Part shown: piece after piece, positions 3,710 to 50,548 of the stretch
Numbering within the stretch: the stretch's first letter is position 1
Layout: every line of letters begins with the position of its first letter
Source of the DNA: Bacteroidetes bacterium UBA7662
GTDB lineage: Bacteria; Bacteroidota; Bacteroidia; UBA7662
Reading direction: 5' to 3'
Length of the DNA stretch: 64,000 nucleotides
Assembly: GCA_002483345.1 (NCBI GenBank)
Contig: DLHS01000016.1
Location: 21,956 to 85,955 of the forward strand
Program-made: the position numbers and the translations under genes
Notes under the pieces: generated by a model
What the model saw: only the letters and a program-made list of their open reading frames with translations
Database searches by the model: none
Told to the model about the DNA's origin: nothing

Positions 3710-4419
3710 CCCGAGTAAGTGTTTGTATGCCTGTTTACAACGGCGCTGAGTGGCTGGCGGAACAACTCGATTCCATTCTGCAGCAATTGGGGCCGGAAGA
3801 TGAGATTGTCGTCAATGATGACGGTTCCCGCGACAACAGCATGCAGTTGCTGAGCAGCTATCAGCAACGAGACCCGCGCGTGCGAATACTACCTGCCAGG
3901 AAGTTCGGGAATGTGGTCTACAATGTAGAGTACCTCCTGCAACAGGCTAGGGGAAGTTTTATTTTACTGAGTGACCAGGATGATATCTGGGCACCGGAAA
4001 AGGTGACCCGGATGTTGGCGGCCTTGTCGGATCATACGCTGGTAGTGCATGATTGTGCGGTAGTGGATGCCGGGAAAACACTGCTTCACCCTTCTTTTTA
4101 TGAGATGCACGGCAGTGGCCCTGGCAGATTTAAAAATATCGTCCGCAATAGCTATCTGGGCTGCTGCATGGGATTCCGGAAGGAGTTGCTTCAAACGGCG
4201 CTTCCTTTTCCGGAAAAACTGGATATGCACGATATCTGGCTGGGAAACATAGCGGCATGGTGGTATGAGCTGGTATTTATTAACGATAGACTCCTTTCCT
4301 ACCGACGGCATGGCGGCAATGCTTCTTCTGCCTCAGAAGCCAGCAAATACAATCGTTTGCAGCAAATTGGCATGCGCCTGAAGCTGGTGGCCCAACTTTT
4401 TAAAAGATATTTACGCTGA
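3706..4419 (+). CDS. Glycosyltransferase family 2
   Basis: The ATG at 3706 overlaps the upstream stop. MTRVSVCMPVYNGAEWL...VVNDDGSRDNS...LSDQDDIW is a GT2 signature. Confidence 0.8.
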   Translation: MTRVSVCMPVYNGAEWLAEQLDSILQQLGPEDEIVVNDDGSRDNSMQLLSSYQQRDPRVRILPARKFGNVVYNVEYLLQQARGSFILLSDQDDIWAPEKVTRMLAALSDHTLVVHDCAVVDAGKTLLHPSFYEMHGSGPGRFKNIVRNSYLGCCMGFRKELLQTALPFPEKLDMHDIWLGNIAAWWYELVFINDRLLSYRRHGGNASSASEASKYNRLQQIGMRLKLVAQLFKRYLR

Positions 4420-5174
4420 TGCGTGTCTCCATCATTACCGTTTGCTTTAACAGTGCCGGAACCATTGCCGATACTTTCCGGAGTGTGGCCGCTCAAACCC
4501 ACGCCGGTACAGAACACATTGTAGTCGACGGAGGTAGCACTGACGGAACGGTTACGCTTATACAAGAATATGCAGCTGCTCAGCCTTCCGGTCGTGTAAA
4601 ATGGGTCAGTGAGGCAGACAAGGGCCTGTACGATGCCATGAACAAGGGGCTTGCATTGTGTACGGGAGAGGTGGCAGGATTTCTGAATGCAGATGATTTT
4701 TATGCTTATCCCGGCGCTATATCCGATCTGGTTGCCACTTTCCAGGCAGAAAAAACGGCCTGTGTTTACACAGACCTCCATTATGTGGATGCGCAACAGA
4801 CCGGCAAGGTTACCCGTAAGTGGAAAGCCGGGAAATATCAAAAAAATGCCTTTTTATGGGGCTGGATGCCTCCCCATCCTACCTTTTATGTCAAAACTGC
4901 CGTGTACAAAAGGCTGGGTGGTTACCGGCTTGATTTAAAAAGTGCTGCTGACTACGAGCTGATGTTGCGTTTTTTGCATAAAAACAAGATTACAGCAGCC
5001 TATCTGCCCAAAACCACGGTTTTGATGCGCGCAGGAGGGGTAAGCAATGCCAGCGTACAAAACAGGCTTATCGCCAATCAAATGGATCGCAAGGCATGGG
5101 TAGTGAATGGCCTGAAACCCTACTTTTTCACCCTTTGGGTAAAGCCATTGCGGAAAATCGGCCAGTTTTTTTAG
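4419..5174 (+). CDS. Glycosyltransferase family 2
   Basis: MRVSIITVCFNSAGTI...VVDGGSTDGT...LNADDFY is a GT2 signature. ATGA overlap with the upstream gene. Confidence 0.8.
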   Translation: MRVSIITVCFNSAGTIADTFRSVAAQTHAGTEHIVVDGGSTDGTVTLIQEYAAAQPSGRVKWVSEADKGLYDAMNKGLALCTGEVAGFLNADDFYAYPGAISDLVATFQAEKTACVYTDLHYVDAQQTGKVTRKWKAGKYQKNAFLWGWMPPHPTFYVKTAVYKRLGGYRLDLKSAADYELMLRFLHKNKITAAYLPKTTVLMRAGGVSNASVQNRLIANQMDRKAWVVNGLKPYFFTLWVKPLRKIGQFF

Positions 5175-5300
5175 ACAACGAGATTTCGAGAGGCGAGAAG
5201 CGAGACTTTTGCGCCTGCGGCGCAGTCCATAGCCGATAACCACACTGCCGCACAGCGGCAGTAAAAAGTCTCGCTTCTCGCCTCTCGAAATCTCGCTGTC
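5174..5300. repeat. Nested-palindromic MITE/REP-like intergenic element, copy 1
   Basis: 37-nt terminal inverted repeats (5174-5210 and 5264-5300, 1 mismatch) flank a 53-bp core with two GC-rich sub-hairpins (gcgcctgcggcgc; ctgccgcacagcggcag). The left arm begins at the stop codon of the GT2 gene. The 31-nt core of the arm (gagatttcgagaggcgagaRgcgagactttt) recurs at 59610-59640. Confidence 0.7.
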
Positions 5301-5348
5301 TAAGAAAAGAAACCGCTGCGAAGCAGCTCCATTATTTATATTTGAGGT

Positions 5349-6644
5349 ATGATTAACCTGATCCTTTCAGGAGGCAGCGGTACCCGTTTGTGGCCTCTTT
5401 CGCGCAAGTTTATGCCCAAGCAGTTTTATCCGCTTCTGGGTGAAAAAACGTTGTTTGAGCGAACAGTTGAGCGCAATGCTTCCACTTGCAAAGCTTACTG
5501 GATTGTTACCAATCAGGATCAGGCTTTGCTTGCCGAAGCACAAATGGGAGCACATGAAGCCCGCTTCATCCTGGAGCCTGTAGGCAGAAATACCGCACCC
5601 GCCATTGCGTTGGTTTGCCATCTCCTTGAGCCGGATACAGTGGTACTCGTGAGTGCCAGCGATCACCTGATTAAAAAGCAAGCTGCTTACGAAAAAGTGG
5701 TAGCCCGTGCTTCCAAACTGGCTGAAGAAGGGTTTCTGGTCACCTTCGGCATCAAACCTTCCTACGCTGAAACCGGCTATGGCTACATTGAGTCAAAAGG
5801 GGAGGAAGTTTTATCGTTCAAGGAAAAACCGGATGCGGTAACGGCGGCACAATACCTTGCCAGCGGTAATTATCTCTGGAACAGTGGCATGTTCTGTTTC
5901 AAAGCCGGAACCTTTCTGGAAGAGCTGAAGAAACATGCCCCCGAGGTATACCACAAATCAAAAGAAGCCCTGAAAAATCATCCTGCAGAGGACGAAATAA
6001 TCGAAATTACTCCGGAGGCCATGCAGGCCATACCGGAAATCAGCATCGATTATGGTGTCATGGAAAAAAGTGATAAGGTGCGGGTGGTGCCTGCCGACAT
6101 CGGCTGGAGTGATCTGGGCAGTTTTGATGCCCTCTACGAAGAACTGCCCCATGATGAGCATGGAAATACGGAAGCGGAAATCACCAACTTCCTGGGAGCA
6201 AAAAATAACCTTGTTTTCAACCGCTCCGACAGCCGGTTGGTACTGCTGGATGTGGAAGACCTGCTGGTGGTAAAAACGCAGACCGCGACCCTCATCGGCC
6301 GCAGAGGACACTCACAAAACGTAAAAAAAGCAGTCGACTTCCTGAAAAAAGAAAACGCCTGGGAACTCAACACCCATGAGAGCCAGGTACTGAGTTATGG
6401 CATTCAAAGGGTCATCAGCTCAACGCCCGAATACGAGCTGGTGGAATTATTTCTGCATCCGGGAGAGACCATTCATACCCATCCGGGTGAACATATTTCC
6501 ATTCAGTTGATTTCAGGCAGTCTGCAACTCGATGAACGTCAACTTAAGTTGGGTGAAAGTATTTCAGCACAAAAAAATGCGCTTAAGTTATTTAACCCTG
6601 ATTTAGAGCAACCCTGCTTGCTGCTTATTACTCATTTGCATTGA
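5349..6644 (+). CDS. manC: Mannose-1-phosphate guanylyltransferase (GDP-mannose pyrophosphorylase) with C-terminal cupin
   Basis: N-terminal LILSGGSGTRLWPLSR nucleotidyltransferase motif. C-terminal cupin region (LHPGETIHTHPGEHISIQ). 431 aa. Confidence 0.85.
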   Translation: MINLILSGGSGTRLWPLSRKFMPKQFYPLLGEKTLFERTVERNASTCKAYWIVTNQDQALLAEAQMGAHEARFILEPVGRNTAPAIALVCHLLEPDTVVLVSASDHLIKKQAAYEKVVARASKLAEEGFLVTFGIKPSYAETGYGYIESKGEEVLSFKEKPDAVTAAQYLASGNYLWNSGMFCFKAGTFLEELKKHAPEVYHKSKEALKNHPAEDEIIEITPEAMQAIPEISIDYGVMEKSDKVRVVPADIGWSDLGSFDALYEELPHDEHGNTEAEITNFLGAKNNLVFNRSDSRLVLLDVEDLLVVKTQTATLIGRRGHSQNVKKAVDFLKKENAWELNTHESQVLSYGIQRVISSTPEYELVELFLHPGETIHTHPGEHISIQLISGSLQLDERQLKLGESISAQKNALKLFNPDLEQPCLLLITHLH

Positions 6645-19198: not shown

Positions 19199-20304
19199 GA
19201 TTCATAAAATTCCCGGATACAGCTTGCAACATAATTAATTTGTTCCTCCGTGAGCTCAGGATAAATAGGCAGGGACAGAATTTGCGACTGATAAGACGTA
19301 GCTACCGGGAAATCTGCCGGCTGATGTCCGAGATACTGATAGGCTTTAAGATTTGGCAGGGCAGTTGGGTAGTGGATGGCCGTTTCAACCTGCTTTCTTT
19401 TAAGGAACGTCATCAGGTCATCTCTTCTTTGGGCCCGAATTACATAAAGGTGAAAGGAGTGTTTGGAGTCAGGTCTTCTTGCTGGTGTCACAATTTGCGG
19501 AATGCCTTGTAAAGCTTTGTCGTACAAACTTGCACAGCGAATCCTTGCCTCTGTCCAATCGAGTATGTAAGGTAATTTTGCCGAAAGGATGGCTGCCTGC
19601 AAACCATCTAACCGGCTGTTGATTCCTTCAATCTGATGTTCATGTTTTTGGAGTGCCCCGTGTCGTGCATACATTTTGCATTTTTCAGCCAATTCGGCAT
19701 TGTTGGTAAGTATGCATCCTGCATCGCCATAGGCCCCCAGATTTTTACCAGGGTAAAAGCTGAAAGAAGCGGCAATACCAAAACTACCCACTCGTTTTCC
19801 CCCAAGCTCCGAAAAATGTGATTGTGCACAGTCTTCAATAACAGGAATACCATATTTATCTGCAATTGCGCAAATAGCTGTAATGTTAGCCGCCTGTCCT
19901 TGCAGATGTACCGGAATAATTGCTTTGGTCCGAGGGGTTATCCTTGCCTCAAGCATCGTTTCATCCATGCTATAATAAACAGGATCTATATCAACGAAAA
20001 CAGGCTTGGCACCTGTTTGGGAAATGGTTTCTGAAGAAGAAATCCAGCTGTTCGCCACGGTAATTACTTCGTCACCGTTCCCGATACCCAACATTTTCAT
20101 AATAATGTACAGAGAATCAGTACCATTGGCAACTGAAATACAATGCTTGATACCATAAAGGGATGAAAAGGCAGCTTCAAAATCTGTAACTGGTTTACCT
20201 CCAATAAAAGCTGTGTTTTCAATAACGTCAGAAATAGCGCTGTCTATTTCTTTCTTTATAGAATAATACTGTGCTTTTAAATCAACAAAAGGAACTTTTT
20301 GCAT
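19195..20304 (-). CDS. DegT-family aminotransferase (WbpE-like, UDP-2-acetamido-3-amino-2,3-dideoxy-hexuronate forming)
   Basis: VPFVDLKAQYYSIKKEIDSAI...CISVANGTDSLYI is a DegT/WbpE signature. Operon context with WbpD-like and WbpB-like genes. Confidence 0.8.
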   Translation of the reverse strand: MQKVPFVDLKAQYYSIKKEIDSAISDVIENTAFIGGKPVTDFEAAFSSLYGIKHCISVANGTDSLYIIMKMLGIGNGDEVITVANSWISSSETISQTGAKPVFVDIDPVYYSMDETMLEARITPRTKAIIPVHLQGQAANITAICAIADKYGIPVIEDCAQSHFSELGGKRVGSFGIAASFSFYPGKNLGAYGDAGCILTNNAELAEKCKMYARHGALQKHEHQIEGINSRLDGLQAAILSAKLPYILDWTEARIRCASLYDKALQGIPQIVTPARRPDSKHSFHLYVIRAQRRDDLMTFLKRKQVETAIHYPTALPNLKAYQYLGHQPADFPVATSYQSQILSLPIYPELTEEQINYVASCIREFYES

Positions 20305-20309
20305 ATAAG

Positions 20310-20765
20310 TTATTTAATTTTTTTGGCAGGATTTCCTGCATAAACTCCTGGCTGATGAATATCTTTTGTAACTACTGCCCCGGCACCAATAACCACATTA
20401 TCACATATGGTAACAGGAAGTATCGTTGCATTACTGCCAATGCTCACCTGATTCCCTATACGTGTTGACTTCCACAAGGTCTTGTCGCCTCTTGCCGGAC
20501 CACCTTTTGCAAAAAGGTCATTGATAAACATGACTCCATGACCGATAAAACAATCATCGCCAATATTAACCAGCTCACAAATAAATGAATGTGACTGGAT
20601 TTTAGTACGATGACCTATGATCACGTCTTTCTGGATCTCTACGAAAGGGCCAACAAAACAAGCATCTCCAATGGTACAGCCATATATATTAACAGGTTCA
20701 ACGATTTTGACTGATGAGCCAAACTGAACGTCTTTGATGGCAGAAGTATATAATGTAGGGCTCAT
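20310..20765 (-). CDS. Hexapeptide-repeat N-acetyltransferase (WbpD-like)
   Basis: 151 aa left-handed beta-helix protein. Adjacent to the WbpB/WbpE homologues. Confidence 0.7.
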   Translation of the reverse strand: MSPTLYTSAIKDVQFGSSVKIVEPVNIYGCTIGDACFVGPFVEIQKDVIIGHRTKIQSHSFICELVNIGDDCFIGHGVMFINDLFAKGGPARGDKTLWKSTRIGNQVSIGSNATILPVTICDNVVIGAGAVVTKDIHQPGVYAGNPAKKIK

Positions 20766-21778
20766 GACGCATTTTGTTTAACCGATTGATAAATCTTATC
20801 AATGATTTCAACAGTTTTCAGTCCCTCAAAAGAATTGGTAGAAATTGTGCTTCCATTGTTCAGAACATCTATTACATTTTCATATACCTTATCATGATTT
20901 GACATGGAACCCTGGTACTTACCATAGTTATTTGCCGTATTTCCAACAGGCAAATCTTTAAATTCAAATCCATCAATGTTCTGGTATTCCAACTCATTCA
21001 GATACTGACCTCCGATTTTTACGGTTCCTTTTTCCGCAAAAATGGTCAGTGATCCTTCCATATTTTTGCCATAGCTGTTAACAGTGTAATTTACAGTACC
21101 TATGGCACCGTTGTAGAACTGCATCACAACTGCGCCTGTGTCTTCAAATTCAATCACACCTTCATGGGCATAATTACCCATAAAAGCATGTACTTGTTTT
21201 ACATCACCCACTATCCAATAAAGTAAATCAATAAAATGGCTGAACTGAGTGTACAGCGTTCCGCCATCAAGTGCTTTAGTTCCTTTCCAGGAATTTTCGT
21301 AATAATCAAAGTTCCTGTTCCAGAAACAGCTGAGCTGAACACTGTAAATCTTACCCATTATACCCTCATCAATGGCCTTCTTGACTGCAGCAACCGGTGG
21401 ATTAAATCTGTTCTGTTTTATGGCAAACAAGCGTTTGTTATTTTTTTCCGCAGTTTTAATCATTTCACCACAATCATAAACACTGATTGCCATAGGTTTT
21501 TCACATAAGACATGATATCCTGCATTCAATGCTGCAATGGCGTGCTGAGCATGGAGCCCGTTAGGGCTGCTTATGGTCACAACATCTACATCGGGTTTTG
21601 CAGTCAGGAGTTCTTCTATCGAAAAAAACACCCGGGCATCATATTTCTTGCCGAGAGAATTAGCCTTTTCAGGTTCTATATCGCATACTGCCACTAACTC
21701 CCCTAGTCTTGCTATATGTTCGGCATGGCGTTGTGCAATCCGTCCACAACCAACAATTGCAAATTTAATTTTTTTCAT
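20762..21778 (-). CDS. Gfo/Idh/MocA-family oxidoreductase (WbpB-like UDP-GlcNAcA 3-dehydrogenase)
   Basis: KFAIVGCGRIAQRHAEHI N-terminal Rossmann of the Gfo/Idh/MocA family. 338 aa. Confidence 0.8.
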   Translation of the reverse strand: MKKIKFAIVGCGRIAQRHAEHIARLGELVAVCDIEPEKANSLGKKYDARVFFSIEELLTAKPDVDVVTISSPNGLHAQHAIAALNAGYHVLCEKPMAISVYDCGEMIKTAEKNNKRLFAIKQNRFNPPVAAVKKAIDEGIMGKIYSVQLSCFWNRNFDYYENSWKGTKALDGGTLYTQFSHFIDLLYWIVGDVKQVHAFMGNYAHEGVIEFEDTGAVVMQFYNGAIGTVNYTVNSYGKNMEGSLTIFAEKGTVKIGGQYLNELEYQNIDGFEFKDLPVGNTANNYGKYQGSMSNHDKVYENVIDVLNNGSTISTNSFEGLKTVEIIDKIYQSVKQNAS

Positions 21779-22905
21779 ATACTGGGCTTTTCAAGGTATA
21801 AATTAAGGTAGGTCTTGGCAATTTGAGTCCATGAGAATGGTGCGACCGCCTGAACAGCTTCCCTACTTGCCGTTTCGAAATTGTCAGCTATTTTTTTGAT
21901 AGCTTCAATACTCTCGTTCATATTGTTTGGTTGTACCGGAATTGCAAAGCTACTCTTTTCAAAATAACCATCTATTCCCTGCCCTGCAGTATGTATAACA
22001 GGTAAACCCTGACTCAGCGCCTCCAAATAAACCAAACCAAATGTTTCAAGCTTACTGATCATGACAAAAATATCATGTTCTCCATAAAGCGCCCGCATGG
22101 CAGTGGCTCCTTCAACCTTTCCGACAAATTTCACAAAACTAAAGTCTTCTTGCTTTAAAGCCTTTAAAACACTTTCATGACCATCTCCGCCCCCTCCGGC
22201 AAGCGTGAGTGTTACAGGACGTTCTCCAGATAGTGCTTTTATCACGCTAAGAAGAAGTAAAATGTTTTTATTGAAGGTAAAATCACCTACGTACAATATC
22301 CTCAATGGATTATGGGGTACAGGCCGGGATTCCTGATTTTCAAACCAATCAGGAGTTAATCCGTTTGGTATCACAGTCGCATTCAAAATACGCTCCTTCA
22401 GTTGCCCGGCAATATATTTATCCGCAACCTGCTTCCGATACGACGGTGTAACAAATATGCACTGCCTGGCATTTGACAGAATATTTTGTCCATGTCCTCT
22501 CAGATGAATCATATATTTAAAAAACATATTTACATCTGTATTCCTGACTGCTGTAATATATGGGATTGAAAATTGCTGCTTTAATTTCAAGGCAACACCC
22601 CCGTCACTGAATAAGAAGTGAGCATGGATGATGTCTATTCCTTTTATTTCCACTTTGGACAGAACATCCTCATAAATGGTATTGATTTTTGATTTGTAAA
22701 GTATACGGTGTTTTGGCTCAAGAATATGGGCATAAATAACAACTGTATCCGGTACATTAGGGATATCGTACTTCCCAACTTCTGCTGCTGTCCTGACAGG
22801 TACATAAATGGTTTGACGGATTCCCATTTGTGCAAGCGACAGAAAAAGTTCTTTGTACAGCTTTTGTCTGGAATAATCGGAGCACAAATGAAGCACATGT
22901 ATCAT
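21775..22905 (-). CDS. Glycosyltransferase family 4
   Basis: 376 aa GT-B protein. Overlapping start and stop with neighbours. Confidence 0.75.
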   Translation of the reverse strand: MIHVLHLCSDYSRQKLYKELFLSLAQMGIRQTIYVPVRTAAEVGKYDIPNVPDTVVIYAHILEPKHRILYKSKINTIYEDVLSKVEIKGIDIIHAHFLFSDGGVALKLKQQFSIPYITAVRNTDVNMFFKYMIHLRGHGQNILSNARQCIFVTPSYRKQVADKYIAGQLKERILNATVIPNGLTPDWFENQESRPVPHNPLRILYVGDFTFNKNILLLLSVIKALSGERPVTLTLAGGGGDGHESVLKALKQEDFSFVKFVGKVEGATAMRALYGEHDIFVMISKLETFGLVYLEALSQGLPVIHTAGQGIDGYFEKSSFAIPVQPNNMNESIEAIKKIADNFETASREAVQAVAPFSWTQIAKTYLNLYLEKPSI

Positions 22906-24032
22906 CTGGAGTAATAGCCCTTTTCTCTTAGTTTATTTACAAAAGACTTTAGCTTTTGTACTCTTTCAAAATTATTGGGGTAATCTCTGAACGTTTTAGG
23001 AGGCAGAGCCATGATAGCATCAAAAGATGCTTCATTTAACTCAAATTTCTTGATAACAAAATCCTTGTCCTGCCTGAAGAGTTTTTCATCATAACCAGGC
23101 AATTCCATTTGTTTCAGCGCATCCTCCCGGCTTATCTGTCCCGACTTAATCAAATCTGATAAATGAGCTTTGCGTTTATCTATTCCAAATTTCCGGGGCA
23201 GAATATAACCCTGAAAAAATCTTGTATAGACCGACTCATAGTGTTTACCTCCGTAATAAACCCAGCCAAGCTCAGATTGAAGAATCTCCATCACGGCATC
23301 CTTCTTATAATCTACATAGTTTAATATTGAAATTACTTTAATTCGTTTTACAATATTCCACCAGAACAAATCAAAGAAAGTGTATTTGGGATATCGGTTC
23401 AATTTAGCTGTCCCGAAAATCTTTTGAATTGACTTAATATACTTCCAATCACTGTGTCCATATGCCCATCCGGGTACACTAATGGATTCTGCCGCGAAAT
23501 TCATTCCATTTATAATATACTTGATTCCCCTCTTATTAGCCTCCCTGAACAGCAAGGCATTGATGGCATGATCTGTCGGGATTTCACCATCCGGTGTGGA
23601 AGCCTTTAAAAATGAAAGCTGCAAATCTTTAAATTCTTCCCAATCAATGACATAAGTATATAAGTCAATGCCCAGGTGATCCAGTGTCTTTTCTATATTA
23701 CTTACAGCTAATTCAGAATTCCATCCGTTATCAAAGTGAATGGCCAGGGGCCGGATGCCCAGTTGTTTGGTTAAATAGGCCACATAGGTGCTGTCAACAC
23801 CTCCGCTCACGCCAATGATACAATCGTATTCCTTCCCGTTACCGGATGCCTTTATTTTTTCTATCAGTATGCTGAGTTTCTGATCAGCCTCCTGTCCGCT
23901 AAATACCCTTCTATGGAGTTCGCTGTTATACCTCAGACAATGATTGCAGATTCCCTTGCTGTCAAATGTAATGTCCGGATCAGAAGTATCCATTATACAC
24001 TGGGTACATATTTTATAGGCGAGATCTTTCAT
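22902..24032 (-). CDS. N-acetyl sugar amidotransferase (WbpG/WbuX/PseA-like PP-loop ATPase)
   Basis: N-terminal Cys cluster (CTQC...CNHC) and PP-loop IIGVSGGVDSTYVAYL. 376 aa. Immediately followed by HisH/HisF paralogs as in wbpG-hisF-hisH and wbuXYZ clusters. Confidence 0.8.
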   Translation of the reverse strand: MKDLAYKICTQCIMDTSDPDITFDSKGICNHCLRYNSELHRRVFSGQEADQKLSILIEKIKASGNGKEYDCIIGVSGGVDSTYVAYLTKQLGIRPLAIHFDNGWNSELAVSNIEKTLDHLGIDLYTYVIDWEEFKDLQLSFLKASTPDGEIPTDHAINALLFREANKRGIKYIINGMNFAAESISVPGWAYGHSDWKYIKSIQKIFGTAKLNRYPKYTFFDLFWWNIVKRIKVISILNYVDYKKDAVMEILQSELGWVYYGGKHYESVYTRFFQGYILPRKFGIDKRKAHLSDLIKSGQISREDALKQMELPGYDEKLFRQDKDFVIKKFELNEASFDAIMALPPKTFRDYPNNFERVQKLKSFVNKLREKGYYSR

Positions 24033-24784
24033 AGCGAATTTAGATTTGCAATTTCATCCTGAGTGGGGTAGTTTATCAAAACAGCCCTGTGTTTTCCTTT
24101 ATATACAAAGAAGCTGCCAGCTGCCACTGAAGAAGCTTTCCCAATTTTGAGTGCATCAGCAATGTGAGAAATATTACCTGCCCCGCCACTGGCTACAATT
24201 GGCACATTTACGGCATTGGCAACACTTTTAGTAAGCTCCAGATCAAAACCAGACATACTTCCTTCCTTATCAACAGACTGAATAATGATTTCTCCTACTC
24301 CGGCTGCAACTACCTGTCTGGCAAAATCTTCCGGTGTCCATTTGTGTTTAACGGTACCGCTTTTGCTGTACACCTGATAGGAACCAAAAAAAGACTTTTT
24401 GGCATCTATGGAGACTACGATGCTTTGATTGCCATAAATGGAAGCGGCCTTTGCAAGTAATTCAAAATCGAAGGCAGCAGAATTCATAATAACTTTTTCA
24501 ACTCCCAGATCAAAAATCCTGCGTATCTGCTCAATATTCCTGATCCCCCCCCCATAACCAACCGGCATGAAACATTCACTTACAATATCTTTTATCCAGG
24601 CATAGTTGGGCTCTCTTTGTTGCGTACTGGCTTCAATATCACATAATACCAATTCATCAACCTCTTTTTCGTTGAATATCCTGACAGCATTGATCGGATC
24701 TCCAATGTAAACAGGGTTCTTGAAATTAACAGTCTTCACCAATCCCTTCCCTTTGAGCAACAATACCGGTATAAGTCTTATCAT
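24029..24784 (-). CDS. HisF-like imidazole glycerol phosphate synthase cyclase subunit paralog (WbuZ-like)
   Basis: MIRLIPVLLLKGKGLVKTVNF matches the HisF N-terminus. ATG at 24784 sits 2 nt after the hisH-like stop. The upstream in-frame Met at 24862 would overlap. Confidence 0.85.
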   Translation of the reverse strand: MIRLIPVLLLKGKGLVKTVNFKNPVYIGDPINAVRIFNEKEVDELVLCDIEASTQQREPNYAWIKDIVSECFMPVGYGGGIRNIEQIRRIFDLGVEKVIMNSAAFDFELLAKAASIYGNQSIVVSIDAKKSFFGSYQVYSKSGTVKHKWTPEDFARQVVAAGVGEIIIQSVDKEGSMSGFDLELTKSVANAVNVPIVASGGAGNISHIADALKIGKASSVAAGSFFVYKGKHRAVLINYPTQDEIANLNSL

Positions 24785-24786
24785 TT

Positions 24787-25404
24787 TCACAACTCTAAAA
24801 AATTCTGGAAAAGGCGCATCCCAAACTTGTGACTCTTTTCCGGATGAAACTGTACTGCCCAAATATTATCCTTATGCAAACCCGCAGCAAATGGAGTCTT
24901 GTATGCAGCTGTACATAATACATCCGAAGGCTGGTTACTGTGCATATAGTAGGAATGAACAAAATAAAACCTGGGATTCTCCGGCAGATTCTTTAGCAAT
25001 TCCGTTTCATTTTCAAATTGAATGGTATTCCACCCCATATGGGGTATCCTTATGTTCTCTTCATTCGGAAGTTTCGAGAAATGAAGTACTTCGGCATCAA
25101 AAAAACCAAATCCAGGCATAGTCCCTTCCTCTGACCTTTGGGTCAACAACTGCGCCCCCAAACAAATACCCAGTAAAGGCCGCTCTTTCTGCTGCACATA
25201 CGCTTTCACAGCTTCTACTAAATTATTGTCTGACAGCATCTTCATCCCATGATCAAAATGCCCTACACCTGGCAGTATTAATTTATCCGCACCCAATATT
25301 TCGTCAGGACTGCTGACAATTTTACTTGTCCCCCCCAGCCTGCGAATCATGTTAACAATAGAGCCTATGTTTCCCGCTCCGTAGTCAATGATACTTATCA
25401 TCAA
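24787..25404 (-). CDS. HisH-like glutamine amidotransferase paralog (WbuY-like)
   Basis: IIDYGAGNIGS, GVGHF and PHMGWN are class-I GATase motifs. Confidence 0.85.
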   Translation of the reverse strand: MMISIIDYGAGNIGSIVNMIRRLGGTSKIVSSPDEILGADKLILPGVGHFDHGMKMLSDNNLVEAVKAYVQQKERPLLGICLGAQLLTQRSEEGTMPGFGFFDAEVLHFSKLPNEENIRIPHMGWNTIQFENETELLKNLPENPRFYFVHSYYMHSNQPSDVLCTAAYKTPFAAGLHKDNIWAVQFHPEKSHKFGMRLFQNFLEL

Positions 25405-26570
25405 AGCAGCTCTTCTATATCATTCATTCCAAAGTCTTTCAAAACAACCGTTTTACCAGTTCTGTATGCTTCAACCCCAGCGAGCGCTACCACCACTGAT
25501 CTGGCAGCGTCGAATACTGTACAATCTAACTTACCCTTTCCCTTGACAGTATTCATAAAGTTTTCTGCAGAATTTCTGACCGCCATGGAGTGTTCATAAA
25601 GTCTGATGGGATAATATCCAATATTGTATTGGGCATTATAAGGGTATGACCGCATCAGCCATTCAAAAAGTTTGGAGTAGGTAGCGATGACTGTTTCTTT
25701 TATCCATGCCAGTTTCCTGCCTTGCATGGTATTTCTGATCGGAGTAGCAAATATTTCAAAACTCCCGTCTTTGTCAAACAGCATATTGTTGAAGATGCTC
25801 TTATCATTACCATAAACCTGAACCGTATGGTCTTGCGGTCTTCCGGCACCGAAGGCAGTTACTACTTTCCCAATTATACCTGACCTGAACTTAAGCAGGA
25901 CTACATTTAAATCACTCTCCGGATATTCAGGGAAACAAATATTGTTTGCCATGGCTGATACCTCTACAATCTCATCATCAACAACCCACCTGAGAAGGTC
26001 GACGAAGTGAATCCCTGAATAAATGAGTGGGGTAGCGTTCTCAACCAACCGCCAGTTATCGTATTCAAAAGCTCGTTTGGTAAGGTTGTGTACATAGTAT
26101 CCTTCTATATATCCAACTTTCCCAAGCACACCACTGCTGACGATATCCTTGATTTTACGGTGTATAGGCAAACACCTCATCTGGTGTTGAACGCCGACTA
26201 CAATGTCAGGATGTGCTTTTACACATTTCAGAATATCTCTTATCCCTTCGACAGAATCGGTCAGAGGTTTTTCGCACAATACATGTTTACCATGTTCCAC
26301 ACTCCGGCAGATATATTTTGCATGGGTGCTATCTGGTGAAGAAACAACCACGATATCAATTCCACTTTCAAGAAATGCATCAAAATCCGATGTGAGGAAT
26401 AGGTCTGCCCTATGATTCCTTGCCCGTTCAAAGGCTGGCTCTTTTATGTCGAATACACTGATTACAGAACAGTCATCAAACGATTCAAAGTGTTTGTACA
26501 GAGCCATGCCTGCTCCTCCAAAACCTACGATTCCGATGTAGTACTTTTCTTTTATCTTAATTTTATCCAT
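25401..26570 (-). CDS. Gfo/Idh/MocA-family oxidoreductase
   Basis: N-terminal IGIVGFGGAGMALYKHF Rossmann fold, with VLCEKP motif. 389 aa. Confidence 0.75.
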   Translation of the reverse strand: MDKIKIKEKYYIGIVGFGGAGMALYKHFESFDDCSVISVFDIKEPAFERARNHRADLFLTSDFDAFLESGIDIVVVSSPDSTHAKYICRSVEHGKHVLCEKPLTDSVEGIRDILKCVKAHPDIVVGVQHQMRCLPIHRKIKDIVSSGVLGKVGYIEGYYVHNLTKRAFEYDNWRLVENATPLIYSGIHFVDLLRWVVDDEIVEVSAMANNICFPEYPESDLNVVLLKFRSGIIGKVVTAFGAGRPQDHTVQVYGNDKSIFNNMLFDKDGSFEIFATPIRNTMQGRKLAWIKETVIATYSKLFEWLMRSYPYNAQYNIGYYPIRLYEHSMAVRNSAENFMNTVKGKGKLDCTVFDAARSVVVALAGVEAYRTGKTVVLKDFGMNDIEELL

Positions 26571-26595
26571 AGGACAATAGGTAATAAAATTGAAC

Positions 26596-27537
26596 TTAAT
26601 TTCTTGTATTGTATTCTTTTATTTCAGCATTAATATATAGCTGAGGATCATCCTTCTCTAATAAATTTTCCGCAATCAAACCAGCGAAAAAGGTGGAGAA
26701 TATATGGGCTCCCTTTTCATTAAGGTGCTCCAGATCAGCAAAATGCTGGTTTCCGAGAGCCAGTTGTTTAAAGTCAAGAAAAACGACCCCATCCAGCAAT
26801 TCCTGTCTGTTCTTCTGAAAAAAAGCTTCGTTCTGTAAATAAGGCCAGGCCGGATGGAGGGGTGTTCTGATCAGGTAAAGGGATACTTTTTTCTCTTTGC
26901 ATAATGCTACTATCTTCAACAAATAGTGCATATTCAACTTGGCCATATCTGCAGGTAATATCGTCTCCTGAGAAGCTATGTTCACAAATGAATCGGTAAG
27001 CAGTCGGGTCAAAGGGGAAAAACCGCCCAATGAATGATTTGTCAATACATTGACAGAGGTCATTGCCTCCCTACTTACTTTTGGCAGTGCCTTGATATGT
27101 GTTTTTATAAAAGGTAATTCGTTATTAAGCGTCAGATGTTCAAACTCTTCTTTTCCTAAAAGAGCGTAGTACAACGGGTATCTTGAATTCAGATAATTTT
27201 CCGAATAAATAATGGAATCCTGCTGCTTATCAACCTGGAAGTTGCAAAAATCAACAAAAACATGTTCAATATGAGCATTCGTTTCCAATACATTCTTAAT
27301 CTTCAAATAGGTGAACATATAGATTTCACTGGATTGAGAAATATTCACAAAACCATCCAGAGATGTATTCATGGAACACTCAAGGTGAGAATCTCCCACC
27401 ACCAGATACTTTTTTGATTCAGGTATTCTGAAATAATCAGCATCGTATTGGCATAAATAACCAATCCAGGAGGCAATTAAAAGAACAACTACAAAAAGCA
27501 AACTGAACTTAGCCGAATCAACTAAAAAATTTCTCAT
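26596..27537 (-). CDS. Signal-anchored SGNH/GDSL-like protein, putative O-acetyltransferase partner of MBOAT (AlgJ/AlgX/PatB-like)
   Basis: N-terminal signal anchor. VVGDSHLE (block I GDSH) and C-terminal DLEHLN (DxxH). Immediately downstream of the MBOAT gene. ATG at 27537 chosen, which removes the 77-nt overlap. Confidence 0.45.
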   Translation of the reverse strand: MRNFLVDSAKFSLLFVVVLLIASWIGYLCQYDADYFRIPESKKYLVVGDSHLECSMNTSLDGFVNISQSSEIYMFTYLKIKNVLETNAHIEHVFVDFCNFQVDKQQDSIIYSENYLNSRYPLYYALLGKEEFEHLTLNNELPFIKTHIKALPKVSREAMTSVNVLTNHSLGGFSPLTRLLTDSFVNIASQETILPADMAKLNMHYLLKIVALCKEKKVSLYLIRTPLHPAWPYLQNEAFFQKNRQELLDGVVFLDFKQLALGNQHFADLEHLNEKGAHIFSTFFAGLIAENLLEKDDPQLYINAEIKEYNTRN

Positions 27538-27544
27538 GGTAGTC

Positions 27545-28993
27545 CTAGAACTGAAAATAAATAAATTCCTGCTCGCGGCCGTTAAAAAGGAAAATACAGA
27601 ATAGTATAACCCCATATACAACCCATCTTACATTCCGTTTCCACGGGTTCATAAAATGCTGTATAGCATACTGGCTTTCTCTGCCAATCCATTCAATCAG
27701 CATAAATATGACTACCAGTATCAAAGTTGACACTGCCAATCCAATTCCCGGGAAATACGGAATTTTGAACAGATCCCATGTAAACATCCCTTGCAAATAA
27801 CTAAAGGCATGTCCTACGTTTTCAGCTCTGAAGAAAATCCAGGCCAAAACTGTGAGCGAAAACGTAATCGAAATAGAGAAAAACTCCCTGAGGGTAGGGA
27901 AATACCTGCCAGCTGCCACTATATCAAGATTTACCCTGTTTTTACCCCTCAGCAATGAGGGTAAAAAATAGAGTGCATTCAGCCCTCCCCATATTATGAA
28001 AGTCCAGTTGGCACCATGCCAAAATCCGCTTACCAGAAATATTATAAATGTGTTCCTTATTTTAAAACCCATGGAACCTCTGCTGCCACCTAAGGGGATG
28101 TATAAATAATCTCTGAACCAGGAAGACAAAGAAATGTGCCATCTCCTCCAGAATTCAGCTATATCTCGAGAAAAGTATGGGTATGCAAAATTCCTTAACA
28201 AATCAATCCCAAATAAACGAGCAGTACCAAGAGCTATGTCAGAGTATCCTGAAAAGTCACAATATATCTGAAACGTGAAGAACAATGCTCCAAGAAGCAG
28301 GGTACTGCCTGAATAGTCAGAAGAGTTATTAAAAATAATATTGGCATATTCCGCACAGTTGTCCGCTATGACCACTTTTTTAAAGAGACCCCATAAAATC
28401 TGCTTCAATCCATCTACTGCCTGTAACCGGCTAAAAACACGCATTTTCTGAATCTGGGGCAGAAGGTGCGTTGCCCTTTCGATAGGACCTGCCACCAGTA
28501 ACGGAAAAAAACTTACAAAAACAGAGTAGTCTACAACATTCTTTTCTGCCTTGATCTTACCGTTATAGATATCGATAACGTATGACAATCCGTGAAAGGT
28601 ATAGAATGAAATACCTACCGGCAGAATAACATTTAAAGTGAACACATCCACACCTATACCCAAACTGTCAAGACCTGAAGCAAATGAGGTGACAAAAAAA
28701 TTATAGTATTTGAACACTCCCAGAAATCCAAGATTTACAATTATGCTCAACCAAAACCAGAATTTCTTTTTTCTGACATCTATCGCTTCTTCAATTTTGA
28801 TTCCGGAGTAGTAGTCCAGAAATGTGGAGAACATCAACAGGAAGAGGAAACGATAATCCCAGCAGGCATAAAAATAATAGCTTGCAACGAGCAACAAAAT
28901 ATTCTGAAGACGCAGACTTTTATTGACCACAAACCAATAGAAAAAAAACACTATTGGTAAAAATATGACGAATTCAATAGAATTAAACAGCAT
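27545..28993 (-). CDS. MBOAT-family membrane-bound O-acyltransferase (AlgI/DltB/PatA-like)
   Basis: 482 aa polytopic protein. Conserved FWRRWHISLSSWFRDYLYIPLGGSR with the catalytic His. Confidence 0.85.
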   Translation of the reverse strand: MLFNSIEFVIFLPIVFFFYWFVVNKSLRLQNILLLVASYYFYACWDYRFLFLLMFSTFLDYYSGIKIEEAIDVRKKKFWFWLSIIVNLGFLGVFKYYNFFVTSFASGLDSLGIGVDVFTLNVILPVGISFYTFHGLSYVIDIYNGKIKAEKNVVDYSVFVSFFPLLVAGPIERATHLLPQIQKMRVFSRLQAVDGLKQILWGLFKKVVIADNCAEYANIIFNNSSDYSGSTLLLGALFFTFQIYCDFSGYSDIALGTARLFGIDLLRNFAYPYFSRDIAEFWRRWHISLSSWFRDYLYIPLGGSRGSMGFKIRNTFIIFLVSGFWHGANWTFIIWGGLNALYFLPSLLRGKNRVNLDIVAAGRYFPTLREFFSISITFSLTVLAWIFFRAENVGHAFSYLQGMFTWDLFKIPYFPGIGLAVSTLILVVIFMLIEWIGRESQYAIQHFMNPWKRNVRWVVYGVILFCIFLFNGREQEFIYFQF

Positions 28994-30214
28994 CTATATA
29001 AGTTGTTTGTTGTAATTAGATTCATTCTGACTTATCCCGAAATAGATTGCCAGGAAAACAGTCAATTGAGGAATCACGCATACAGTCTCTGTAAAATCGA
29101 CTGAAATAATAGTCAATCCTATAAGGATTTTTGGTGCTGCGGATCTTACGCTCAAAAGTTTTGCAAAAAGAATGTATAAGTAAAATAAATACCCAACAAT
29201 GCCCCTTTCTATCAGTAGTAACAAAGAGGCCGATTCACTACCCTTGTGGGGAGCGCCCGTGTCAGCCATTAAAAACATTTCATTCCCGGTACCGACGCCA
29301 AACAAAGGCCTCTGGCTAATCAGGTCGAATGTAAATTCGGCAATTCTACGTCGGATGGTATAAGAATTATCTTCCTGATCTACCAACGCACTCAATCTGA
29401 AAAGATCATCAAGAACCAATAGATCCTCATAGTTACTGTAGACAAACAATCCGAGCAGCACGCTTACAGCCAAAAAGATTAAAAGTTTAAAATGTTGTTT
29501 TTTGATCACGCTGTAAACAACATTTACCATTACGAATGCGAGCATGGATGTCCTCGATTTTGAGAACAAAACAAGGTTAGCCAGAACAAAGAGAAACAAG
29601 ATTACTTTCTCCTTCTTCGACAAGTAATCCGGGTTTTCGAAAAATAAGAGTATGTAACAGAATACCGTAAAAACTCCGAATACGTTCGCATTCCCAAGAA
29701 AAGAAACAGGCCTTTTGGCTAATGGCAGGGCTTCTTCAACATAAACTACCCAACTTCCGTTTTCAATAACATAGATAGGTTGAAACAACGACTGATAAAG
29801 TGCTACAAAAAAAGAAACAATCAGAAGTACTTTAACAACCCCAAAATAAAATGACGTCTTCCGTATTTTGAGGGTTCTGACCAGGTAGTAAAATAAAACA
29901 GGGACTACTGCTCTTAAAAATCCCGGAATTGTAACCCCATAAGGAGAAAGCGCATAAGAACATAGAATTGTAAAAACAAAAAGTACAATAAACCAAACTT
30001 CATTTTTAGTAAAGATTGCCCCTTTTGCCAGTAGTAAACAGGCAAACAAGACGGGTAGCGTAATGAATGTGGAGATATTATAAAGCCAATAGGGTAATCC
30101 CGGAATATACCCGAGCATCCCAAGCGTAAACATAACCGCAAACAGAAGGTTTGCAACTATACCATTTGAATGTACGCGCGGCACATCCGTAACCACATTA
30201 CTTAACGATGTCAT
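28994..30214 (-). CDS. Wzy_C-family membrane protein (putative polymerase)
   Basis: 406 aa polytopic protein. GAPHKGSESASLLLLIERGIVG resembles the Wzy_C H...E-R-G-I-x-G motif. Confidence 0.5.
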   Translation of the reverse strand: MTSLSNVVTDVPRVHSNGIVANLLFAVMFTLGMLGYIPGLPYWLYNISTFITLPVLFACLLLAKGAIFTKNEVWFIVLFVFTILCSYALSPYGVTIPGFLRAVVPVLFYYLVRTLKIRKTSFYFGVVKVLLIVSFFVALYQSLFQPIYVIENGSWVVYVEEALPLAKRPVSFLGNANVFGVFTVFCYILLFFENPDYLSKKEKVILFLFVLANLVLFSKSRTSMLAFVMVNVVYSVIKKQHFKLLIFLAVSVLLGLFVYSNYEDLLVLDDLFRLSALVDQEDNSYTIRRRIAEFTFDLISQRPLFGVGTGNEMFLMADTGAPHKGSESASLLLLIERGIVGYLFYLYILFAKLLSVRSAAPKILIGLTIISVDFTETVCVIPQLTVFLAIYFGISQNESNYNKQLI

Positions 30215-31353
30215 TCAACAATGAATCGACTGTATATTTCTTCCATGACACCAGAACATCTTTCATTAGAATGCTCCTTAACCACAAACGCTTTACCTCT
30301 TGCGGAAATGCTACCCCAATCGGGAATCGATTTAAGTTTATCAAACTGGGCAACAAGGCCCTTGGGATCTCCCTCTGCTGCTAAAAAATGATTTTCAGGA
30401 GGTATAATATTGGGAATATCCGCGTGTGTGGTTGAAACGACAGGCAGACCTAAAGCCTGCATCTCTATGATAATTGTGGGAGCCCCTCCCTCAGACCCAC
30501 CATCAGGAGCAGTTTCACTGGGATGAAAAAACAAATGGAAAGACGTGGACAGGGTATAGATCTCATCCAGAGATCTTTTACCAATCAGGGAAACAACATG
30601 ACCGAGTTCAAGCCTTTCTATAAGATTGAGAATGTCAACCTTCTGAGGCCCCTCTCCAATGATAACAACCTCGAGCTTGTCTCCTCTGTCAGCCATTATT
30701 TTAATGGCTTTGAGCGCTGTCAGATACCCCTTCTTTGGATAAAAATTGGCACACATCAAAATCTTCAATACTTCGCCTTCAGACCAGGAATTACGTTCTC
30801 TGAACTGGAGGTGGTCTAAAGGAACCCCTATCTTAACCACCGAAACCTTCTCTTGTTCACATCCCAATTCCACCATCCTGCTCTTCATAAATTGGCCTTC
30901 CACTACTATCTGAGAAGCATGCTCAAAGAGTAAATGGTAACGATCCCTCCAACCAGGCAACTTAGGTACGTCAGACATATCAGAGCCATAAAAAGTAACA
31001 ATCAGCGGTATGTTGAGCTTTTTAGACAGCTTAATAGCATAATATCCCTGAGTACCCATGTGGGCGTGCAAAATCCCGATATTTTTTTCTTTCCTCAACA
31101 AAAAATAGTAGGACCACCAATCATTAATCAGACGTGCGCTAAACCCCAGTTTAACGGTCAGCAGCTTATCGAGAAACAAAAAAGGTGCAAAAAACGGGCT
31201 TGTCTTCAGTATATTCTTATAGGGATAAAGAATTGTATCGACAGGAATTATTTCCCTACAAGCTACAAAATGCTCGTACTTTCTGAATCCCTTCAGTAAA
31301 AAATAGACGAAGCTGACTCTCAGGTACTGATCTCTAAGATGTATAATTTTCAT
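30211..31353 (-). CDS. Glycosyltransferase family 4
   Basis: 380 aa GT-B protein. EGGAPTIIIEMQALGLPVVST is a GT4 C-terminal motif. Confidence 0.8.
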   Translation of the reverse strand: MKIIHLRDQYLRVSFVYFLLKGFRKYEHFVACREIIPVDTILYPYKNILKTSPFFAPFLFLDKLLTVKLGFSARLINDWWSYYFLLRKEKNIGILHAHMGTQGYYAIKLSKKLNIPLIVTFYGSDMSDVPKLPGWRDRYHLLFEHASQIVVEGQFMKSRMVELGCEQEKVSVVKIGVPLDHLQFRERNSWSEGEVLKILMCANFYPKKGYLTALKAIKIMADRGDKLEVVIIGEGPQKVDILNLIERLELGHVVSLIGKRSLDEIYTLSTSFHLFFHPSETAPDGGSEGGAPTIIIEMQALGLPVVSTTHADIPNIIPPENHFLAAEGDPKGLVAQFDKLKSIPDWGSISARGKAFVVKEHSNERCSGVMEEIYSRFIVE

Positions 31354-32807
31354 GCTCTACTTTTCAAATATTTTGTTGAAACAAAATTCCAGATAAAATC
31401 AAAATTTCTTCTGTAGATATATACATACAGTCCCAACATTGCAGCGTAGGATAAAACTGCTATAAACAAGTTTAAATTATACTGAAAAATAAGCCTGTCC
31501 GCCACGGAAAACATTATAAAAAAAAGCAAAATACCCAGGGTTTCAGGAAACTTGTAATCCAAAGGAAAATACTTCTTGTTGTAAATATTTATCAGAACAA
31601 AAGAAGTCAATGACATCAATATCTGACAAAGAGCAGCGCCGAGTAATCCTATTTTTTGTATAAGAATATAACTCCCGATAAGTCCTGTAATGAGCGTTGC
31701 TATGGTAACCAGCATTTCGATACTGGTTTTTTTATTGATGTTGGTTGTCATAGCCAACAACATAAACAACACGCTCAGTGAATTGGCAATGATCAGAAAA
31801 GGGGTATACAAAGCTGCTTCCAGGTATTCTTTTTTACTCAGGTAGTTCAGCAGGTAGGCATCTACAAAAACCAGCAACATAGCCAACAGAAAGAACATGG
31901 AGACAAAAGTTGATATTTTGGCGTTAATCTGCCTTTTAAACTCATCAATAGACACCGTGTTATACATTCTCAGGTAATAGGGTGTAAACGAAATCATAAA
32001 AGCATTAACCAACACAATACTTAATATACCTGTGATCTTCTGGGCAACATCAAAAATGGCCACATCCTCTGTATTTGAAAAAAATACGAGAAAGTATCTG
32101 TTACCGTAAGCGATTAAATAGGAAACAACATTTGCCACCGATAAGGGCAATCCATACATAAGTAAGTACTTCAAAGCTCCCTTATTAAAATCCAGGGTCA
32201 GAAATTTGCTCAGGAACCCGAATCCAATGACAATGCTGAGTGTAGAAGAAATCAAATAGCCTACAAGTATATTTTCCACTCCAAAAGATGTAAAAAACAT
32301 AATGTACAAATTCACCACACACAATATGATTACATCTGCAACTGTCAGGCTAACGTACTTAACCGGCTTTTCCAAAGCCCTTAATGCGCCCAGTATCATG
32401 CCGAACAAAACCCTGGTAAATCCCCAAAGCAGGACCACAAAGACGTTATTCCTGTCTGCCTGTGAACTAAAATTTGGAATATTTAAAGAGTCAGGCAGCA
32501 AATTAAAAAAAACAAAAACAACCAGAAATGTTAACAAGAAAAACACGGTCATGGTTGAAACCGCCGACCTTCTCAAAGAAACAGCATCAAATTCAGAGAA
32601 ATATCTTAAAATACCGTTGGAAATTGAGAATGAAAAAATGATGCTGAACAAGTTCCCGGTTACATAGAGAATCGAAAATTTCCCATAATCTGCAACATTC
32701 AATTTTTCCAGGTAAACAGGAATCAGCAACAGCACTATCAGTGCGTAGAGCATATTGCCGATTCCGTATATTAAGAAACTCTTAGTTAGAGAAATGCCTG
32801 GCATCAA
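31350..32807 (-). CDS. wzx: Wzx-type polysaccharide flippase (MOP superfamily)
   Basis: 485 aa, about 12-14 TM, polysacc_synt-like N-terminus. Confidence 0.75.
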   Translation of the reverse strand: MMPGISLTKSFLIYGIGNMLYALIVLLLIPVYLEKLNVADYGKFSILYVTGNLFSIIFSFSISNGILRYFSEFDAVSLRRSAVSTMTVFFLLTFLVVFVFFNLLPDSLNIPNFSSQADRNNVFVVLLWGFTRVLFGMILGALRALEKPVKYVSLTVADVIILCVVNLYIMFFTSFGVENILVGYLISSTLSIVIGFGFLSKFLTLDFNKGALKYLLMYGLPLSVANVVSYLIAYGNRYFLVFFSNTEDVAIFDVAQKITGILSIVLVNAFMISFTPYYLRMYNTVSIDEFKRQINAKISTFVSMFFLLAMLLVFVDAYLLNYLSKKEYLEAALYTPFLIIANSLSVLFMLLAMTTNINKKTSIEMLVTIATLITGLIGSYILIQKIGLLGAALCQILMSLTSFVLINIYNKKYFPLDYKFPETLGILLFFIMFSVADRLIFQYNLNLFIAVLSYAAMLGLYVYIYRRNFDFIWNFVSTKYLKSRA

Positions 32808-50535: not shown

Positions 50536-50548
50536 CCCTGTATTTCGG

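Follow-up and report, generated by a model that had tools for sequence, protein, structure and literature searches.

REPINs, which are mobilized by RAYT transposases, carry conserved inverted ends around a less conserved spacer and show compensatory changes (Bertels & Rainey 2011, PMC3116915). The termini of repetitive extragenic palindromic (REP) sequences often give TAG stop codons, REP dimers have variable spacers and are in some cases nested in long palindromes, and families of long terminal inverted repeats (TIRs) go with Y1 transposases (Di Nocera et al. 2013, PMC3733652). [quoted passage not shown] Here we analyzed a 64,000-nt stretch of contig DLHS01000016.1 from Bacteroidetes bacterium UBA7662, referred to below as the window, and describe two palindromic elements within it: copy 1, at the 3' end of a GT2 glycosyltransferase gene, and copy 2, in the spacer between a DASS/SLC13 transporter gene and sucB. 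The pair is real, does not reflect chance and consists of related palindromic elements, which make up a new sequence family of a familiar bacterial repeat kind and not a new kind of system. Our favored reading, in which our confidence is evenly balanced, is that they are two members of a low-copy, lineage-restricted, non-coding palindromic repeat family that resembles REPINs and TIR repeats and serves as a 3'-end RNA hairpin.

Structure of the elements and their closest counterparts

The 31-mer GAGATTTCGAGAGGCGAGARGCGAGACTTTT, in which R is A in copy 1 and G in copy 2, was found four times in the window, as two inverted pairs. It matched without mismatch at 5180-5210 (+), 5264-5294 (-) and 59610-59640 (+), and with one mismatch at 59752-59782 (-); no match was obtained in 100 dinucleotide-preserving shuffles, and none is expected by chance. 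These results upheld a first-pass annotation of the same DNA, which had described a two-copy family of nested-palindromic intergenic elements with perfect or near-perfect 31-nt terminal inverted repeats: the inverted ends are conserved, and the cores are variable and rich in hairpins. The full inverted repeat spans 45 nt at 96% identity in copy 1 (5166-5210/5264-5308) and 63 nt at 83% in copy 2 (59603-59665/59727-59789), where the perfect part is only 26 nt long. Between the two left arms, homology extends over 46 nt (89%; 5170-5215 in copy 1 versus 59600-59645 in copy 2), from TTTAGACA on, and this homology, followed outward to TTTAGACA, gives element extents of about 5170-5304 and 59600-59790. 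The termini of copy 2 were set by homology with copy 1 together with contig ends in the Logan assemblies (59629 and 59761), which are described below. The parts of the two elements are as follows.

5170-5304: copy 1, whole element, about 135 nt long, flanked by the GT2 gene and a ManC-like NTP-transferase gene; defined by the inverted repeat, homology with copy 2 and folds
5170-5210, + strand: copy 1 left arm, TTTAGACAAC and then the 31-mer (GAGATTTC GAGAGGC GAGAAGC GAGAC TTTT); holds the GT2 stop codon TAG
5211-5223, + strand: copy 1 inner-left hairpin, GCGCC-TGC-GGCGC; from the fold of 5211-5263 (z -3.5)
5244-5262, + strand: copy 1 inner-right hairpin, ACTGCCGC-ACA-GCGGCAGT; from the fold
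5264-5304, - strand: copy 1 right arm, which mirrors the left arm as its reverse complement except for a single mismatch within the terminus (ACAGC versus ACAAC)
59600-59790: copy 2, whole element, about 191 nt, the entire DASS/sucB spacer; defined by the inverted repeat and folds
59600-59640, + strand: copy 2 left arm, TTTAGACATT and then the 31-mer (G variant); carries the last two DASS codons and TGA
59646-59660, + strand: copy 2 inner-left hairpin, GACCCC-TGC-GGGGTC, positioned as in copy 1; from the fold and read from the sequence
59728-59750, + strand: copy 2 inner-right hairpin, CTGCAACCCC-TCC-GGGGTTGCAG; from folds
59752-59790, - strand: copy 2 right arm, in which the 31-mer has one mismatch (GAAAC for GAGAC) and the terminus has diverged (GAGATTTT replacing TAGACATT)

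Both copies share one layout, namely arm, T-run, GC-rich tri-loop hairpin, unrelated core, hairpin, A-run and inverted arm. Alignment of the four half-elements gave about 38 invariant columns in a single order: a tag, (T)TTAGACA-nn, then the units GAGATTTC GAGAGGC GAGARGC GAGAC, a T-run and a GC-rich tri-loop hairpin. One element is two such half-elements, inverted, with the tags facing outward. The arm is thus best read as four units of about 7 nt; the tandem GAGGCGA duplication reported for it at first pass is exact in copy 2, with a single mismatch in copy 1. Three of the termini have the sequence TTTAGACA or CTTAGACA; at the right end of copy 2 it is GGGAGATT. A terminus of the form TTAG-N4-YGAGAT was considered at this last end and rejected, as the bases concerned are sucB codons conserved in relatives. 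The cores, for which lengths of 53 and 109 bp had been given, measure 53 nt in copy 1, as stated, and 111 nt in copy 2; their G+C content is 65-66%, compared with 45% for the window, and the GC-rich hairpins predicted in them were present in both folds. When each element was compared by BLASTN with the window and all fetched loci, the copies were alike in their arms only and the cores were unrelated.

RNA folding, proposed as a check in the first-pass annotation, gave very stable structures for the + strand of copy 1 (-98.8 kcal/mol, z -12.6) and for the + and - strands of copy 2 (-117.9 and -121.6 kcal/mol, respectively, both z -10.5), and the DNA fold of copy 1 reached -60.8 kcal/mol (z -14.4). 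Either strand forms a hairpin of 34-45 bp with small hairpins nested in it; the arms alone folded no better than shuffles (z -0.9 and -1.1). Between the copies we observed a paired double change, A5199/T5275 in copy 1 versus G59629/C59763 in copy 2. Furthermore, the inner-left hairpins have the apex CC-TGC-GG in common and differ on both sides of three stem pairs, and inner hairpins match more closely within one copy than between copies. Taken together, the nested hairpins, the compensatory change and the inverted arrangement of the arms indicate that pairing has been under selection.

Like REPINs (PMC3116915), the elements have two inverted ends that are conserved and a spacer that is less so, form a long hairpin when single-stranded (as DNA or RNA) and show compensatory changes across the stem, and they are extragenic, non-coding, about 100-200 nt long and free of target-site duplication. 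In contrast to REPs and REPINs, however, the conserved end is a non-palindromic heptamer array of 31-40 nt and not a GTAG-tagged REP palindrome, and the termini contain TAG instead of GTAG or CGTC. The small palindromes lie within the arms and have no conserved sequence, one spacer is unrelated to the other and about twice as long, and two copies were seen here (in ~77 kb), whereas REPINs number tens to hundreds. TIRtrons and their TIRYT transposases offer a second parallel (PMC3733652). These moderately abundant families consist of long inverted repeats, distinct from REPs, with an organization as dimers; the spacers of head-to-head dimers are 20-100 bp long, vary in sequence and size and have small stem-loops at their ends, and the repeat termini give TAG stops to flanking open reading frames (ORFs). 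Nested REP dimers of Anabaena variabilis and Halothiobacillus neapolitanus similarly hold small palindromes inside outer palindromes of 41-55 bp (PMC3733652). Nevertheless, the window elements have no sequence similarity to the described families, and their tag is TTTAGAC(A), not GTAG/CGTC.

Bacterial MITEs, such as the Correia elements of Neisseria (reviewed in PMC10969869), resemble the window elements in being short, non-coding and intergenic, in having terminal inverted repeats (31-45 nt at 96-100% here) and in overlapping gene ends in some cases, but neither a target-site duplication nor common internal sequence nor a parent insertion sequence (IS) was found here. BrickBuilt, a Porphyromonas gingivalis MITE with a 23-nt minisatellite (PMC4596501), is likewise an intergenic element of Bacteroidota with short tandem units, variable unit number and a limited host range. 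Its closest likeness is to the 22-nt unit arrays of three relatives (L014, L015 and L022; see below); the window elements differ from it in having about four 7-nt units per arm, inverted arms and no leader or tail segments. Because of the conserved inverted ends, the variable hairpin spacer, the compensatory change, the lack of target duplication and the extragenic position over stop codons, we describe the element as working in the manner of a REPIN or TIR repeat. It is not filed as a REP or a MITE, since it falls outside the strict definitions of both. The two identities suggested at first pass were therefore given up, the classical MITE because target-site duplications are lacking, the two cores are not related and the searched collections yielded no IS with these ends, and the classical REP or bacterial interspersed mosaic element because the arm is not itself palindromic and lacks a GTAG/CGTC tag. 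An attC site was rejected by inspection (no RYYYAAC/GTTRRRY cores), and a CRISPR identity was also considered and rejected.

Gene ends, relatives and the assembly graph

Both elements overlap a stop codon, as had been noted at first pass, and lie among the following genes.

4419-5174, + strand: GT2 glycosyltransferase gene; stop codon TAG at 5172-5174, within the conserved terminus of copy 1
5349-6644, + strand: ManC-like nucleotidyltransferase (NTP-transferase) gene
58184-59611, + strand: DASS/SLC13 transporter gene; stop codon TGA at 59609-59611, within the conserved terminus of copy 2
59796-61019, - strand: sucB, convergent to the DASS gene; stop codon at 59796-59798, 6 nt beyond copy 2

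The closest relatives available are equally distant from the window organism (~90% identity for E1, 55-59% for DASS and 70% for GT2). In three of them with the same gene order (L014, L015 and L025), the DASS/sucB spacer is 42-44 nt long and contains a canonical bidirectional terminator, AAAAATGCC...GGCATTTTT, and no element. The DASS gene of these relatives ends TGG TTT AAx TAA (WFN*/WFK*), whereas that of the window ends TGG TTT AGA CAT TGA (WFRH*; TGGTTTAGACATTGA), with the last two codons (R H) and the stop contributed by the element. Comparison of TTTAGACATTGA with TTTAAxTAA places the start of the element within TTTA. The end of sucB in the window is ancestral (LLSI* versus LLGI* in relatives). 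Judged by this comparison, the element is derived, the DASS/sucB site being empty in three relatives. In another relative, L020, the DASS gene is missing and sucB directly faces a response-regulator gene (L020 13951-14011); the DASS gene is therefore an accessory insertion that only part of the lineage carries here. At the other site, the GT2 protein ends ...QFF* in the window versus ...QFFFAH* in L021 and ...QFSIFNRK* in L022, so that the TAG of the element cuts GT2 short by 3-6 codons relative to its 70%-identical orthologues. The ancestral spacer is gone, not split, at both sites. The first-pass annotation had named a lack of further copies and of conservation in relatives as grounds for refutation; the family was found neither in relatives nor in the other genomes searched, and the assembly graph described below hints at one or more extra copies.

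No terminator-like site was found on either strand from 59300 to 60100, and near copy 1 such sites occurred only outside the element, at 5309-5330. A canonical intrinsic terminator within the elements was rejected, as neither strand has a hairpin followed by a T-run; the T-runs inside both elements come before the hairpins, not after. The terminator role suggested at first pass thus lost its usual signature but kept its position: the element sits where relatives hold a canonical terminator, and a 3'-end structure or terminator-substitute role is plausible, although only inferred from the position of the element, its stability and the absence of another terminator.

Just outside copy 1, at 5315-5327, a hairpin (GCTGC-GAA-GCAGC) followed by a T-rich tract is terminator-like on both strands. 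A Bacteroidetes-type -7 promoter motif, TATATTTG, also lies outside copy 1, at 5337-5344, 5 nt upstream of the ManC start. The last ~45 nt upstream of ManC, including this motif, are conserved between the window and L021 and are not part of the element.

The window sequence is also present in JGI metagenome 3300000271 (contig PBR_1000035, 199 kb), and its proteins occur in the Logan assemblies SRR845265 and SRR5322582. As Logan is built on distinct 31-mers by construction (PMC12424806), we compared its contig ends with a k=31 de Bruijn graph made from the window alone. This graph branches at copy 1 only, at nodes 5179-5209/5180-5210 and 5264-5294/5265-5295, and the Logan contigs end there exactly as predicted, with SRR5322582_62 ending at 5208 and SRR5322582_50 starting at 5266. 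The breaks at copy 1 are therefore attributable to its own 32-nt inverted repeat. Contigs also end at copy 2, at 59629 (SRR5322582_50 and SRR845265_1181) and 59761 (SRR5322582_9), where the perfect inverted repeat is only 26 nt long, so that the window sequence cannot cause these breaks. It follows that other sequence in the SRR5322582 and SRR845265 samples must have at least 30 nt in common with each arm of copy 2. If the branch enters from outside, the sharing would begin at 59600 (TTTAGACATT...) and 59790, which are the termini given by homology. On this graph reasoning, the breaks at copy 2 suggest either that the genome holds one or more additional copies or that copy 2 itself is polymorphic in the samples.

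SRR845265_1181 has a further end at ~6522, in the 3' part of the ManC-like gene, where the window-only k=31 graph predicts no branch and SRR5322582_50 continues through. SRR845265 probably holds a second strain or a paralogue with a common 31-mer at ~6522.

Other repeats and features in the window and its relatives

Hairpin-rich intergenic repeat arrays of other kinds, some of them at the same sites, were seen in the relatives. In L014 (2119-2417) and L015 (1-430), arrays of tandem 22-nt units, GGTTTAGAC-AGCCTGCGGCT-GA, flank a conserved core of ~110 nt on both sides, the right array being inverted relative to the left. These units hold a small hairpin (AGCC-TGC-GGCT or GGC-TTC-GCC), vary in number between genomes and have no Rfam match; at the syntenic Glycos_transf_N site the window has only 13 nt (50535-50549). 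The same 22-nt unit type lies directly downstream of the GT2 orthologue in L022 (6771-6827), where a Logan contig ends, and Logan contigs start or end within such arrays. In L020 (21549-22030), the same convergent-gene spacer carries four to five tandem units of ~100 nt, each with the hairpins GCCCT-TTC-AGGGC and CAGGGC-TGC-GCCCTG. Throughout these lineage-specific repeats, and also in the window elements' cores, there are small GC hairpins whose tri-loop is TGC, TTC or GAA. The left half of copy 1 can be written as TTTAGACA + 34 nt + GCCTGCGGC, and the L015 unit as TTTAGACAGCCTGCGGC. Local alignments of the window elements with the arrays of relatives were mostly within the range of shuffles, the best being copy 2 versus L022 (1 of 200 shuffles as good) and copy 2 versus L014 (10 of 200). 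Kinship between the window elements and these arrays is a lead only.

A single heptamer array was found in L001 (CAVXKP010000013.1), which belongs to an Acidobacteriaceae metagenome-assembled genome (MAG). There, at 3780-3935, one-directional heptamers (GAGAGGC, GAGATGC and GAGATTTC) run from the TGA stop of a chorismate mutase gene and fill the spacer up to the DAHP synthase gene of the same operon. This array is probably an independent microsatellite.

The nearest named homologues of the window proteins are from Cytophagales (Fulvivirga and Spirosoma; 43-58% identity), and copy 1 is surrounded by a large polysaccharide-biosynthesis region. From 20000 to 36000, the window has a G+C content of 39-40%, compared with 45-50% in the flanks, a strongly negative GC skew, and glycosyltransferase, aminotransferase, Wzy and flippase genes; this segment looks like a horizontally exchanged polysaccharide cassette (O-antigen or exopolysaccharide). 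Four stretches of 0.5-1 kb (26570-27545, 38282-39240, 24862-25401 and 39767-40292) have neither an ORF of at least 90 aa nor an Rfam match. Finally, just upstream of a NusG-family gene (47891-48382), the AT-rich 16-nt sequence AGTTATTTCATAAAAA forms a perfect inverted repeat across a spacer of 67 nt (47776-47791/47859-47874).

Interpretation and significance

Under the favored reading of a REPIN- or TIR-repeat-like family that serves as a 3'-end RNA hairpin, the element would have spread, or may still be spreading, as a whole unit by means of an enzyme encoded elsewhere in the genome. Because there are no duplications and the layout combines a tag with a hairpin, we propose a single-strand HUH/Y1 transposase, of the RAYT/TIRYT type, as its possible mobilizer in preference to a DDE transposase, with T-rich gene 3' ends as the insertion target. 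The RNA hairpin would then form the 3'-end structure of the flanking transcripts, acting as a barrier to read-through and to 3' exonucleases and possibly as an RNase III site, and the original terminator could thereby have been made dispensable. A more far-reaching version is doubtful, if possible. It takes the elements to belong to an undescribed, vertically inherited repeat system of an uncultured Cytophagales-like lineage, in which a TTTAGA(C) tag and a small GC hairpin would form arrays of 22-nt or ~100-nt units in relatives, and a heptamer array would have grown between tag and hairpin here; a dedicated single-copy HUH transposase would mobilize the system, which would overwrite intrinsic terminators and last codons and keep its arms in concerted evolution.

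Several results weigh against a mobile family with a 3'-end function. Only two copies were found in ~77 kb of host genome (the window together with L003 and L006). An exact scan of 185,579 GTDB species genomes with a 22-mer from the arm, which did not return the source contig itself, gave no related match; its single match was the one-directional heptamer microsatellite of L001, which we judged unrelated or at chance level, as ~0.5 matches to a 22-mer are expected in 596 Gb by our calculation. An exact scan of JGI metagenomes with a 19-mer from the arm, which also did not return the source contig, gave seven chance-like single matches, mostly coding and none of them the element. A profile of the C-terminal protein tails that the arm would encode (LD.EISRGE[KR]RDF) gave no hit and one word-sharing candidate in a database of 5.8 billion proteins; this padded, eight-row profile works in simulation, single-sequence phmmer being too weak. 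Transposase/RAYT (Y1) and recombinase domains were not found in the scanned window ORFs (nearly all of those of at least 90 aa), in agreement with the first-pass statement that the window holds no transposase. In addition, the insertions are not clean, the ancestral spacer having been replaced at both sites in comparison with relatives as distant as those described above, and polymorphism inside the element in the sampled population is another possible cause of the contig breaks at copy 2. Finally, no U-tract follows any hairpin, so that termination would have to be non-canonical, with Rho, a physical roadblock or RNase III processing as possible means. Beyond these points, the arm had no match in viral contigs, plasmids or phages, the Rfam 15 covariance models had none in the whole window at gathering score, and nothing was found in the literature on the arm sequence strings or the sample accessions.

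We consider it unlikely that the elements are instead classical MITEs of a DDE transposase, for example of the IS630/Tc1 type, inserted at TA, with an IS at another genomic locus acting on their terminal inverted repeats to mobilize them. Such an origin would suit the long, perfect terminal inverted repeats, and copy 1 has TA at both ends (TA/GACAAC...GCTGTC/TA, slashes marking junctions), where taking out the element plus one TA gives back ...TTTTTTTAAGAAAAG, in which TAA is the stop at that same codon; on the left, the junction of copy 2 likewise coincides with TTTA/A of the ancestral TGGTTTAAxTAA of three relatives. However, no direct repeat flanks either copy (CAGTTTT and AAAAGAAACC for copy 1, GTGTGG and CCATCTCA for copy 2), and the TA of copy 1, the sole candidate for a duplication, lies within the inverted repeat, so that it need not be a duplication, and is missing at the right end of copy 2 (...AAAATCTC/CCATC). 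Excision of copy 2 would strip both convergent genes of their stop codons, the cores are unrelated, whereas members of a MITE family have internal sequence in common, and no IS or other sequence with the arm was present in the 185,579 species genomes, plasmids, phages and viral contigs. A purely local origin strikes us as distinctly unlikely. By this account the palindromes are not mobile; they arose by fold-back or template-switch replication, had their arms homogenized by gene conversion, were selected as substitute terminators or RNA-stabilizing hairpins, and were linked by a single ectopic conversion or duplication. It would explain why the arms are more alike within a copy than between copies, including the A/T versus G/C pair and the inner hairpins, why only two copies were seen and why the ancestral spacer was replaced and not interrupted at both sites, and the junctions in T-runs offer possible microhomology. 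Nevertheless, an arm of 46 nt at 89% identity across loci 54 kb apart with unrelated cores still needs transfer of arms between loci, and the Logan contig ends at copy 2 point to more sequence with the same arms, termini included.

The heptamer periodicity of the arm raises the further idea that the arms are arrays of protein-binding sites (GAGAnnC heptamers), forming a regulatory or nucleoid-associated site with only incidental hairpin potential, and the L001 array, in which an unrelated MAG carries the same unit types in one direction right after a stop codon, could be read in the same way. We regard this as very unlikely, given that the inverted arrangement, compensatory change and nested hairpins argue for selection on pairing, that a 7-nt spacing is not helical and that the L001 match is the sole one and within chance expectation. 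Moreover, we know of no candidate protein that binds GAGAnnC heptamer arrays. Least probable of all, and in our view hardly credible, is that the elements are invertible DNA switches (invertons) like those of Bacteroidetes polysaccharide loci, in which a segment is flipped by a site-specific recombinase. Copy 1 does lie within a large polysaccharide-biosynthesis region, and inverted repeats do surround a short segment in each copy. Still, the segments of 53 and 111 nt contain no sigma-70-type or TAnnTTTG motif, the only TAnnTTTG being outside, at 5337; a promoter in copy 2, between convergent genes, would have no target; no recombinase gene was found in the scanned window ORFs; and inversion isomers predict k=31 contig ends at 59633 and 59759, whereas 59629 and 59761 were observed.

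In practical terms, assemblies at k=31 break in the elements at bases that can be predicted, a point of importance when genomes such as this one are binned and assembled. The finding opens no new class of system and has no bearing on a long-standing open question. If the favored reading of a REPIN- or TIR-repeat-like family is true, a palindromic repeat has taken the place of a canonical bidirectional terminator, and presumably its job, while rewriting the last codons of two genes. The reshaping of gene ends and 3' untranslated regions by hairpin repeats, be they selfish or semi-domesticated, would then have a clean natural example, and REPIN- and TIR-repeat-like elements would be extended to a poorly sampled lineage of Bacteroidota.

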